Source: Eledone cirrhosa
Lineage: Eukaryota
Direction of reading: 5' to 3'
DNA length: 64,000 bases
Assembly (NCBI GenBank): GCA_964016885.1
Contig: OZ024743.1
Span: forward strand, 89,714,001-89,778,000
Shown: positions 6,226 through 56,514 of the stretch, piece by piece
How positions within the stretch are numbered: the first letter of the stretch is position 1
Layout: each line of letters opens with the position of its first letter
Position numbers and translations under genes: made by a program
Notes under the pieces: generated by a model
What the model saw: only the letters and a program-made list of their open reading frames with translations
Told to the model about the DNA's origin: nothing
Databases searched by the model: none

Positions 6226-6540
6226 TACGATATTAAATAAATGGAAACTATATTTATAAAATACTATCCACACAGCTTCCAAAAATAATGGTCGCATCTA
6301 ATAGGGTACGTCAAAATTATTTATAAAACTGTTTATATATTGTATTTTGTCTGATGAAGGCATACCATATTTTAATTTGGTATCCCTGAAATATGTATAA
6401 TGAAATAAATATGGTTTCATAAATATAGTTTCCATTTATTTAATATCGTATATCTACTCCAAAAACTTGTCGAGTGCTTTATATCAATTATAAAATATTT
6501 ACTTGTTGTATCCCAACAATTTTAAATAGAACTTTTGCAT
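6226..6540 (+). mobile_element. Family A TA-embedded hammerhead cassette with short 5' inverted arm
   Basis: 6226-6261 is the reverse complement of 6415-6450. Contains the HHR at 6343-6407. Flanked by (TA)n. Homologous to the copies at 16013, 22107, 35871 and 39760. Confidence 0.85.
6343..6407 (+). ncRNA. Type-I hammerhead ribozyme (minimal stem III)
   Basis: Stem I TATTTTGT/ATGAAATA; core CTGATGA; stem II AGG-C-ATACCA..TGGTAT-C-CCT; GAAA; T-ATGT-A; predicted AUA cleavage after 6399. Confidence 0.8.
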
Positions 6541-6554
6541 ATATATATATATAT

Positions 6555-7450
6555 ATATCCAAAATTAAGATAAATCAAAATGAATTTAATCTAAATCAAA
6601 ATTATGGGTGTCATGCCAGAAAGGCATGCGCCATATCACCCGCAAAATAAGCTCTAAGATTCTAATGAATAGGTCCGAGCATTTTATAACAACTAGAAAT
6701 TGATTAACATAAATAAACATGGATAATCACAGGAGATAATTTTTACAAGTGTGTAAGCACACATAGCTAGCTAGGTAACTAAATAAAGTTAACTAGAACT
6801 TCAAAAATAGATACCTTATAATATGATTAATCTTCCCTGTATATATTCCATTAAGGAATATATTTCACCAATTAATCGAATGCCGGTACTTCGATTTTCA
6901 ACAAGGAAGAAGTCCAGCGGTCTATGTTTACGCATTAAGTTCAAATCAGCGACTGGCCAGTAACACGTGCTGTATCTACTAGAAATACACACATCATACC
7001 AGCTTCGTCCCAGTGGCGTGAATAGGGTTATCGACAACTAGAAACAGCAGTCAAGTCCTTTCAACAGAGTTAGCTCTACAATTAAGGAGCCGTATTTATA
7101 TATCTATATCCAAAATTAAGATAAATCAAAATGAATTTAATCTAAATCAAAATTATGGGTGTCATGCCAGAAAGGCATGCGCCATATCACCCGCAAAATA
7201 AGGTCTAAGATTCTAATGAATAGGTCCGAGCATTTTATAACAACTAGAAATTGATTAACATATAAATAAACATGAATAATTACAGGAGATCATTTTTACA
7301 AGTGTGTAAGCACACACAGCTAGGTAGGTAACTAAATAAAGTTAACTAGAACTTCAAAAATAGATACCTTATAATATGATTAATCTTGAAAAAATTATCT
7401 CCTGTGATTATTCATGTTTATTTATATGTTAATCAATTTCTAGTTGTTAT
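6555..7450 (-). mobile_element. TA-embedded element with ~280-bp direct repeats plus a terminal inverted segment (Penelope-like pLTR architecture)
   Basis: 6555-6834 is nearly identical to 7105-7387. 7386-7450 is the reverse complement of ~7237-7300. (TA)n lies on both sides. No HHR core found. Confidence 0.7.
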
Positions 7451-7916
7451 ATATATATATATATATATATATATATATATATATATATATATATATATAT
7501 GATGTTGACTTGTTCTTCTTTTTGGTAAATATCATCTTGGTTAAGAGAGTGGGACTGGCTTTGTGCAGTGCCTTTGCTCACTATAAAAGCTTCACGGCAC
7601 AGGCATTGCTTTATATTTGGAGATCTCTCTGCACTTGTCGTCACATGGTACCATGGGCCCAGCACTATGTGTCAATAATTGTCATAAGTGTAGTGTTTGT
7701 ACCAGAGTTTTCAAGTCGCTGGCTGGACTAAAAAGTCACACTCGTTCAGCGCATCGGTAGGGGTTCTCCTACATGGATATAAAAAGTAGTGGCCGTACTC
7801 GAAAACGAGTTGGCAGCCACCATATATATATATATATATATATATATATATATATATATATATATATATATATATATTCAAAATATTAACAAAATAGATA
7901 TTCTTGTGATCAAGTA

Positions 7917-7983
7917 TATTTTATTATACATATTTCAGAGGTACTGAGTTAAGTTCAACAGTACGTCCTCATCAGATAAAATA
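7917..7983 (-). ncRNA. Type-I hammerhead ribozyme in family B cassette (7878-8053)
   Basis: Minus strand: TATTTTAT-CTGATGA-GGA-C-GTACTG..CAGTAC-C-TCT-GAAA-T-ATGT-ATA-ATAAAATA. Cassette is flanked by (TA)n and homologous to 14582-14958. Confidence 0.8.
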
Positions 7984-53899: not shown

Positions 53900-54970
53900 T
53901 CTTTACGATCTGAGTTCAAATCCCGCCGAGGTTGACTTTGCCTTTCATCCTTACGGGGTCGATAAAATAAAGTACCAGTAATGAACTGGGTAATTGCTGG
54001 CCTTGTGCCTAAAGTAGAAACAATTATGTATTCGTCTTAGTTTTAGGTCCTCCTATGCCCTGGGATATATTGAGCAATGGGTCTTCTCTAATTATACGGT
54101 CAGCTGCGGCATCTTGCGTAGTTTCCTAGTCCTGTCCAATCCTCTGGAAATCTTCTCTGAAAATTGAGCGCCAGGTTCACTTGCCCCCTTCCCCCTTCCC
54201 ACGTGCACCGACTGGGATCCATCTCATTGCCACGGAGCGGTTTCAGTACTCAGACATGCGCAGAATGTGTCCAGCCAGCCCCAGGCGCCCCCTCCACGAT
54301 TATGTAAGCACTCACCCTACACTTTTCTGAATCCCTCTGACTGTAAATGCTATGCTGTACTGAGTTTATGTTCAGTGCCTGGTCTTAGGCTGCTATAAGC
54401 AAACTTTCCTTCAAATCTCCTCTAGTTAGCTTATATCATGATTTTCTTGTCTTAATTTCCTTATTATCATTGTGGATTGGCAGTATCGGTAGAGCATCGA
54501 ACAACATGCTTTGCGTCATATAGTTACGTCACTTTACGTTTTGATCTCAAATCCCGCCAAGGTTAGCTTTGCCTTTCATCCTTACAGGGTCGATAAAATA
54601 AAATACAAGTCATGCACTGGGGTCGATTTAATCGACTTTAGCGCCCCCCCCCCCCCGCAAAATTGCTGGCCTTGTGCCTAAATCAGAAACCATTATTATC
54701 ATTAGTATTATCTGAGTATGAGATTGTAATCACCAAAGAATGAGTCCTCGATAGGTAAACATAGAGTGTAACATATTACAGGGCGGTGGATTGGCAGTAT
54801 CGGTAGAGGGTCGGACGCCATGCTTTCCAGCATAGTTACGTCCCTTTATGATCTGAGTTCAAATCCCGCCGAGGTTGACTTTGCCTTTCATCCTTACGGG
54901 GTCGATAAAATAAAGTACCAGTAATGCACTGGGTAATTGCTGGCCTTGTGCCTAAAGTAGAAACAATTAT
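53900..54970 (+). mobile_element. Meta-like SINE copies (53900-54027, 54472-54700, 54781-54970) around an RTE-like remnant (~54030-54330, minus)
   Basis: SINE consensus. The minus strand of the intervening DNA reads RRLGLAGHILRMSEY..AMRWIPVG. Confidence 0.75.
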
Positions 54971-55835
54971 ATCAGTTTCTCGATGCTAGCCAGAACGGTG
55001 ATAATATCAACTAGCATCCCGAAACTCTTAGTACCTAGGAAAATATATGCCAGTTTGCTATGTGTTCAGTATGATATAGTATATTATAACATAATACAAT
55101 ATATAGTATGTATGTATGTTAAGTCAGGTCTCTCTTCAGAGCTACTGGTAACATGTAACCTAGTACAACCTGTGCATGGTCGGGTTGGCAGCGACTAAAC
55201 CGGAAACCCCACCAAGCATGCTTGATGAGGACGGTGAATTTTGGACACCCTGCAGGATGAAAAACAAAACCCGTTAAAGGGCAGAGGAGCTCAGAAGAGT
55301 CGACGGCCATCCAATAAAGTAATTTTTTGTGAAGCGAGAGACTCCTAGTCTTCTTTAAGACATCTTTCTAGGAGAAGGTCACTCTGATAAAAGGTCTGCG
55401 ACTTCGTTTTCATCCAATGAAGTAGACCAGTTCTACTTTTGAGGCAAATCCTTTTGATGTTCAGAGAGTGGGATTGACCCCGTGCAAAGCCTTTCCCCAC
55501 TTGAAAAAATTCAATCACAGGCATTGCTTCATATGTGATATTTTTTGCGATGCATGGTATTGCTGGCCATAGTCTAGTCCCTAGAAGATCTAAAATGCCA
55601 CGTCTGTGATACTCTTGCTTAAGTATCAAGCGATAGCATTACTTGAAATCGAGTTTCAGCCATCATGTATGTATGTCTATCATATATAGAGAGAGAATAA
55701 TTAAAATTTCCTACACTTAACATGTACGCGCGACCTTAGGTTTCGCGGTCCAGTTATGGCCACCACTGTATTGTGAAGGAGCCGTTCTAATACTGGCTTT
55801 CCATCGGGCGCTCGGATAACCTGTATATATATATA

Positions 55836-56303
55836 GTGTCAGCAGTTCTCTTTACATGCCAACACAAGAGCAAGAATGAGGGGCTCATTCTACTGACATG
55901 GCTTTAAAAATGAGGCCTGTTTGCATAATTACAAACGAATCGAATATTATTATAAATATTCGAAAAACTCAGATTACATTTATTGTATTCAGCCACGTAG
56001 AGCGAAAATTATGCAAATCTGGCTGAGCAGTGGATCTGGTAATATGCAAATCAGGCGCATCAGTCACTGTATATTTTAGGAAATATCATATTTTCACTAG
56101 CTCTGACAGTTGGCAGGTGAACAGTGAACCGTACTGATGAAGGGTAATACCCCGAAACATTAGTTCTGTTTACATGCCAACACAAGAGCAAGAATGAAGG
56201 GCTCATTCTACTGACATGGCTTTAAAAATGAGGCTCGTTTGCATAATTACAAACGAATCGAATATTATTATTAATATTCGAAAAGCTCAGATTACATTTA
56301 TTA
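55836..56303 (+). mobile_element. TA-embedded cassette with 140-bp direct repeats and a hammerhead-like motif at the repeat boundary
   Basis: 55844-55984 is nearly identical to 56162-56303. CTGATGA-A-GGG-TAATAC-CCC-GAAA-C-ATTA-GTT at 56134-56165. Confidence 0.7.
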
Positions 56304-56443
56304 TATATATATATATATATATATATATATATATATATATATATATATATATATATATATATATATATATATGTGTGTGTGTGTGTGTTGATTTAAAACT
56401 GCACTATTCACAAGTGTGTTTTAACCTTCATATCATGTCTCCC

Positions 56444-56514
56444 TATTTTATCTGACGAAAACGCAAATGTTATTGCATGATGATATTTGTTTTTGAAATG
56501 CGCATAATAAAATA
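56444..56514 (+). ncRNA. Type-I hammerhead ribozyme in family C cassette (56390-56640)
   Basis: TATTTTAT-CTGACGA-AAA-C-GCAAATGTTAT..ATGATATTTGT-T-TTT-GAAA-T-GCGC-ATA-ATAAAATA. Confidence 0.82.

Follow-up and report, generated by a model that had tools for sequence, protein, structure and literature searches.

An unpaired cytidine held constant in helix II of hammerhead ribozymes from Penelope-like retrotransposons of Eledone cirrhosa

A 64,000-nucleotide stretch of the Eledone cirrhosa genome (assembly GCA_964016885.1, contig OZ024743.1, positions 89,714,001 to 89,778,000; hereafter the window) carries type I hammerhead ribozymes in which the fourth position of helix II is open. The 5′ base at this position (10.4) is a C in all 18 ribozyme families that we distinguished, whereas its partner (11.4) is C, A, or U. 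The rule at position 4 is C opposite a base other than G, and not C·C. Judged by sequence, the motifs in the window are 5′-truncated 3′ ends, devoid of an open reading frame (ORF), of Hydra-clade Penelope-like elements that carry the ribozyme in a terminal repeat. Selection acted on the master elements, of which the window copies are remnants. We put the probability at roughly one half that the invariant unpaired C is a point at which a protein recognizes the RNA and aids its folding.

A first-pass annotation of the window had named eight hammerheads, with an 8-bp stem I, covarying stem II pairs, and a conserved C·C (once C·U) mismatch. A CUGANGA scan of both strands, together with a structured listing, places all eight where that annotation had put them (Table 1), each with the core CUGANGA...GAAA, U16.1, and A17. 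The quoted stem II pairs are present as written, and stem I has 8/8 pairs in seven copies; the copy at 14759 (TATATTGT) has one mismatch. Pair 4 of helix II is C·C in seven of these hammerheads and C·U at 56444. Three extra copies were found, two with damaged cores and a C·C and one that lacks helix III. The ten type I hammerheads in the window that have all parts share a helix II layout of three pairs, the mismatch, and then at least three pairs, with C·C at pair 4 in nine and C·U in one. An intact type I core (C3UGANGA9, G12AAA15.1, U16.1, and H17, in a three-helix junction open at helix I) is found in 8 of 11 window copies, and an unbiased pattern gives eight matches in the window and none in 99 of 100 dinucleotide shuffles. 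The window copies fall into three groups defined by reverse transcriptase (RT), namely A/A2, B, and C, rather than into eight independent lineages.

For a wider comparison, 255 hits from genomic loci and the window were reduced to 159 by removing exact duplicates and copies fetched as exceptions, and these were grouped by hand into 18 families. The loci of the C·A families (R, P, C2, and short B) were chosen from the list of C·A matches, and families R and Q consist of one copy each. Pairs 1–3 and 5–8 of helix II are paired in 14–18 of the 18 families, with two to seven standard pair types apiece. Pair 4 is paired in none: 13 families have C·C, four have C·A, and one has C·U. On a family tree made without the position-4 columns, the 5′ C does not change at all, its partner changes five times, and each of the 24 other stem columns changes two to eight times (mean 4.5). 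Such constancy arises in 0.15% of neutral simulation runs (P = 0.0015), and a Poisson estimate gives P = 0.011. In an independent MAFFT alignment of 19 single copies, this C is the sole invariant column outside the core and helix III.

Covariation is extensive in the same 19-copy alignment. Changes on both sides are seen in 14 of 17 pairs, helices I–III all covary, and the catalytic core is invariant in 19/19 rows. The covariation score is 0.71, compared with 0.30 for shuffled and 0.09–0.18 for slid alignments, and none of 500 shuffles, which ignore relatedness, reaches it. Neutral simulation on the family tree produces at most 86 paired cells, versus the observed 116 of 126. These results bear out the earlier suggestion that selection acted on RNA structure in the source elements. 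The check set beforehand, in which covariation was sought in larger alignments and the mismatch in family consensuses, found covariation present and pair 4 open in 18/18 families. The mismatch is therefore kept in family consensuses as proposed; what does not carry over is its description as C·C (once C·U), since only the 5′ C is invariant and amplified subfamilies have C·A in addition to C·U. At pair 1, weak combinations (G·U, U·U, or A·A) are frequent and G-C is found in 5 of the 18 families, with no extra base after A9; U·U at pair 1 has a precedent in the available part of PMC3088659. Helix II has at least eight positions and loop II is unconserved, which sets these RNAs apart from the canonical loop I–loop II type. 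C at position 7 seemed to go with G at 10.5, but this association does not hold generally, and CpG decay confounds it.

The genome-wide census used a pattern with no constraint on helix II, along with a reversed control. It finds 107,677 hammerhead motifs versus 170 for the control; because the counts include some nested matches, we speak of about 110,000. A 5′ C is present at pair 4 in 102,158 of the 107,677 (94.9%). By type, there are 74,324 C·C, 3,505 C·A, 418 C-G, and, by subtraction, about 23,900 C·U motifs, with 4,448 having a 5′ base other than C opposite a C and 1,071 having C on neither side. The matches listed for each census search are its first 100. Among the matches listed, the C-G copies occur singly and are spread over many families, and none forms an amplified family; the non-C copies are mostly C-to-T decay, deletions, and artefacts of an additional CUGANGA-like box within the loop of family B; and the C·A copies include three recurring subfamilies. 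Motifs with a longer helix II number 2,461 (control 240), and the recurring families there again have C·C. Motifs of this group that have AUC or AUU as the cleavage triplet number 4,698 (control 80), with 453 (control 74) lacking the C. The AUA triplet, which had been taken as a hallmark of these ribozymes, thus loses that standing, and AUA already occurs in the Penelope hammerheads published in the available part of PMC4209133.

Two features of individual families were also observed. A recurring AUC subfamily (e.g., G000:C1:4688922-4688985) has U·U, G-C, and A·A before the C·C and hence one Watson–Crick pair proximally. Many long-loop copies of family B (e.g., L067 and L088) have a second CUGANGA-like box inside helix II or loop II. 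An A opposite a C is a preferred ADAR editing site, and in the C·A families at L138, L137, and L142 such editing would close pair 4.

The family A ribozyme is covered by contigs of other organisms in runs X5 and X7, where pair 2 changes from G-C to A-U and neither C is altered. The family G ribozyme is also covered in such contigs, with no listed difference inside it. Runs X6, X8, and X10 give thin cover, and X11 gives none. No RNA run was listed among the sequencing runs with matches. These contigs lend weak support, since the runs were chosen for holding family A.

An outgroup set was assembled from 78 marine metagenome loci with related RTs (32–40% identity), 59 of which have a candidate hammerhead, 53 of them distinct. 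Of these Hydra-clade hammerheads, 51 of 53 have a standard pair at position 4, with C-G the commonest (18); the remaining two pair when the register is shifted by one base. Their triplets are all GUH (44 GUA by our count). Other hammerhead families in the same genome are also without a position-4 mismatch. With position 4 paired in 51 of 53 outgroups, the open C is probably a derived and selected state. The simplest history would be that an ancestral C-G pair lost its G while the C was retained. Two Hydra-type hammerheads without the mismatch were noted in this genome, both with a very long helix II: one in L035 (~4050–4250, minus strand), where it is branched and ~110 nucleotides (nt) long, and one in L123 (~5710–5900), where it is interrupted by an insert resembling a short interspersed element (SINE). 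A tie between the AUC family and the L123 RT was rejected, as this RT has its own long hammerhead without the mismatch and counts as an outgroup.

The source of the window copies was traced through longer relatives. The 161 bases around position 6343 have 1,430 candidate matches in the 3.0-Gb genome; the best 50 of the 1,430 are 98–100% identical, many as inverted pairs. The window copies are 3′ fragments of 150–300 nt that are 77–97% identical to long copies and include three inverted pairs; a search of the window for a remnant of the element ORF found none. An RT, a CxCx5C linker, and a GIY-YIG domain lie upstream of the ribozyme in the long copies L031, L102, L117, L137, and L138, as a single RT ORF with a C-terminal GIY-YIG that is frameshifted or truncated in every long copy. 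Direct ribozyme–ORF–ribozyme units span 4.1 kb in L117 and 3.5 kb in L137, and the tandem junctions of L018 and L090 place the ribozyme ~200 nt upstream of the start codon that follows. Over four loci, the RW motif is found in 3/4, DKT in 2/4, CxCx5C in 2/4 (and also in L032–L034), and CxxC and CxH in 4/4; the misses are truncated or mutated copies, or were unmatched by the pattern. A Pfam search with four ORF pieces returned no RT or GIY-YIG match. Insertion at (TA)n, inverted 5′ copies, and tandem and inverted arrangements were all observed.

These traits agree with the Hydra clade as described in the available part of Craig et al. (2021; PMC8557442), whose members, including the octopus family Hydra-1_Obim, have RW[KR], DKT, a CxCX5C linker, a C-terminal GIY-YIG flanked by CxxC and CxH, (TA)n targets, a hammerhead near the 3′ end, and inverted 5′ copies. 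The units differ in length, at 3.5–4.1 kb with a long 3′ untranslated region (UTR) here versus <3 kb there. Our assignment to this clade rests on protein motifs, (TA)n targets, and copy arrangement; the trees cover relatives other than the published Hydra RTs. Five ribozyme families are linked to RTs that are 45–69% identical to each other and that separate from same-genome RTs with other ribozymes (ultrafast bootstrap 98); in a wider FastTree analysis their grouping is weak (0.71). The RT protein relatives (n = 94) include three octopod sequences (P0007, P0076, and P0079).

Families A, C, C2, and G share a second conserved element 50–75 nt downstream of the cleavage site, in which UACUC...GAGUG pairs enclose a nested hairpin of varying sequence. 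It was seen in L018 (minus strand, after 1580), L090, L117 (2630–2680), and L137, and in the window at 6456–6480 and 56560–56590. This element sits close to the 3′ end of copies and is a possible start site of reverse transcription. In four families (L018, L090, L117, and L137), a TGAGC(G/T)CT motif occurs 156–180 nt downstream of the cleavage site and just ahead of the start codon of the following tandem unit.

Folding predictions indicate that these RNAs are weak as monomers. In every family, helix III and its loop form a self-complementary octamer, and the octamer pairs hold in 19/19 rows with compensatory change. Monomeric helix III is predicted at +1.6 to +3.5 kcal/mol in 14/14 representatives, with a pairing probability of ≤0.01 in 13/14; the intermolecular octamer self-duplex is predicted at −2.2 to −10.5 kcal/mol. 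An unstable palindromic helix III is the dimer signature of Penelope hammerheads (PMC4209133, available part; PMC6765202). The mismatch costs 2.5–6.7 kcal/mol relative to C-G and weakens the three core-side pairs, and so it is kept at a price. When position 11.4 is read as G, the probability of pairs 2–3 rises from 0.00–0.94 to 0.69–1.00 in 14/14 representatives. With the mismatch and an often weak pair 1, the RNA is predicted to fold poorly alone. No common pairing partner of the open C emerged in 51 folds, and in the 19-copy alignment no column is invariant apart from the core, helix III, and the C itself. Inhibitory pairing of G8 with C10.4 was rejected (probability ≤0.19 in 51/51 folds).

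The constancy of the 5′ C opposite a partner that varies among nonpairing bases means that something likely reads the C. A protein is favored because there is no conserved RNA partner and because the anole Penelope hammerhead cleaves only with the protein of its element (PMC11167929, available part). We propose that two ribozymes of one tandem transcript would pair through their helix III octamers as a dimer, that cleavage of the dimer after A17 would release a unit-length RNA, and that a protein, most likely the element's own RT-endonuclease, would recognize the open C and help the weak ribozyme fold. From sequence comparison we infer that the RNA dimerizes, that it is cut after A17, and that a protein may contact it. 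An arginine in the dsRBD of DICER contacts a C-C mismatch (PMC10899750), which is only a precedent for the reading of a mismatch by a protein. In its fullest form, the proposal holds that the open C arose from an ancestral C-G pair in a cephalopod lineage of Penelope-like elements and is read by the element's own RT, giving a protein-gated ribozyme with a one-base switch at about 110,000 sites; this version is tentative, and we regard it as rather less than probable.

Several points weigh against a protein recognition point. The family tree is crude and 13 of the 18 families have no RT link. The three to four independent changes of the partner to A, with none to G, are no more than suggestive of G being avoided there (P ~0.1 by our own estimate); taken by itself, the lack of C-G families falls short of significance. 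The missing partner base is also compatible with an RNA contact, since a contact to the backbone or a 2′-OH, or a metal site, needs none. The subfamily with U·U, G-C, and A·A proximally was amplified, which suggests that amplification may not need a good ribozyme. In the available part of the anole study (PMC11167929), core mutations did not lower in vitro insertion, and the site showed no RNA ends.

Among the alternatives, the open C could engage helix I in a tertiary RNA contact or a metal site that replaces the canonical loop I–loop II contact, which we consider possible if on balance doubtful. Position 4 is where the canonical 4-bp helix II ends and loop II begins (PMC4209133, available part), and loop II ranges from 4 nt to long branched loops, so that no canonical loop contact would be available. 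However, the sequence of helix I varies freely and offers no invariant partner, and at the seventh base past the cleavage site just 12 of the 18 families have U. It is unlikely that the mismatch merely weakens proximal helix II, keeping the ribozyme off until a dimer or chaperone forms, with the C kept by descent. The gain in pairs 2–3 with G at 11.4 and the often weak pair 1 would fit this idea, but any mismatch would do, yet the 5′ C is kept in 18/18 families while its partner changed five times, and C-to-U, the commonest decay in copies, founded no family among the matches listed. Slightly less likely again is a role apart from cleavage, in ribonucleoprotein assembly, template choice, or as a DNA-level promoter base of the terminal repeat. 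Penelope terminal repeats do carry promoters (PMC6765202), the subfamily with a nearly unpaired proximal helix II keeps the C, and cleavage is dispensable for anole element insertion in vitro; nevertheless, the catalytic core is invariant over the same families, and the bases on either side covary as pairs, which would not be expected of a DNA motif. Chance plus ascertainment is very improbable: several families were first gathered with patterns requiring the C and the tree is weak, but the exceptions among the matches listed are decayed copies and pattern artefacts with no family having another base, and the long-loop families also show C·C.

What is new in these observations is an open C that is invariant and faces C, U, or A, in a lineage-specific variant of the known Penelope hammerhead; precedents exist for the motif class, the dimer-type helix III, the AUA triplet, and the copy number. 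The minimal hammerheads of Cervera and de la Pena (2014; PMC4209133, available part) share the terminal-repeat position, a long helix II, an unstable palindromic helix III, many covarying families per genome as mostly solo or inverted copies, and AUA in some rows. Their consensus has an extra base after A9 and a G10.1-C11.1 pair, whereas the ribozymes described here lack the extra base and vary at pair 1; the Hydra-clade rows visible in PMC8557442 likewise depart from that consensus. Within the available part of PMC4209133, no conserved helix II mismatch is described, although one of the 56 rows of Figure S3 (sea urchin) has C·A at the fourth pair, which weighs against full novelty. In the available File S2 of PMC8557442, none of 26 hammerhead rows has an internal C·H at pair 4 (by eye), and the triplets are GUH. 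The anole Poseidon element (Frangieh et al. 2024; PMC11167929) also has a terminal-repeat hammerhead by the ORF start and provides a model for protein help. It belongs to another clade, its ORF starts inside the ribozyme rather than ~200 nt downstream, and no mapped recognition element was found in the part of that paper available. Type I hammerheads at very high copy number (~120,000; 126,247 in axolotl) are known from non-LTR (long terminal repeat) retrozymes (PMC7229834; Li et al. preprint 10.64898/2026.07.22.740005; available parts). Those are short non-coding tandem repeats, whereas the copies here are dispersed truncated ends of coding elements, whose direct copies lie 3.5–4.1 kb apart around an ORF. 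No description of an invariant mismatch at position 4 of helix II was found in literature of which the coverage was partial, and supplements may bear on novelty.

These findings bear on the question of why Penelope hammerheads cleave poorly alone and what assists them (PMC4209133 and PMC11167929, available parts). The 18 families amount to a natural mutagenesis that isolates one non-core base, with the paired outgroups as controls, and protein- or tertiary-assisted cleavage becomes testable with few point variants. A large Hydra-clade expansion was missed by Rfam, which gave no hammerhead match at the gathering score in the window and, for four loci, nothing at E ≤ 5. Such motifs may also be rejected by standard helix descriptors.

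Table 1. Hammerheads, decayed copies, and element fragments in the window
Feature	Position	Strand	Details
Type I hammerhead, family A	6343..6407	+	C3 6351; C10.4 6361 opposite C 6384; A17 6399
3′-end fragment around 6343 hammerhead	6250-6542		Ends at (TA)n; 96.6% identity to long copy L031
Hammerhead, family B (long loop)	7917..7983	-	C 7965 opposite C 7940; fragment 7881-8046
Inverted partner copy, family B (short)	14635..14689	-	C·C retained; core damaged, GGAA for GAAA
Hammerhead, family B (short)	14759..14813	+	C 14777 opposite C 14790; fragment 14737-14987; 93.6% to L138
Hammerhead, family A	16146..16211	-	C 16193 opposite C 16169; fragment 16017-16235
Hammerhead, family A2, inverted copy	22150..22214	-	C 22196 opposite C 22173
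Hammerhead, family A2	22295..22359	+	C 22313 opposite C 22336; fragment 22288-22488
Inverted partner, family A2	35861..36057, core at 35951	-	Helix II and C·C intact; helix III and cleavage site deleted
Hammerhead, family A2	36077..36141	+	C 36095 opposite C 36118; fragment 36035-36258
Decayed family A copy	39795..39860	+	C·C retained; core position 9 is C
Hammerhead, family C	56444..56514	+	C 56462 opposite U 56491; helix III octamer AUGCGCAU
Fragment around 56444 hammerhead	56386-56641	+	91.8% to L102

Other features of the window were recorded as well. A hammerhead-like core of another family (at 56134, within 56120–56170 on the plus strand) has a short helix II and a stem I that looks decayed, and it resembles a core in L007. 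A tandem array of ~52-bp units, 96–98% identical, occupies 43424–46747. A SINE-like repeat of ~190 nt is present in more than 30 whole or partial copies (e.g., 9891–10070, 10652–10841, 25892–26081, and 54784–54970), and one copy of it is also inserted in the element 3′ UTR in L138.

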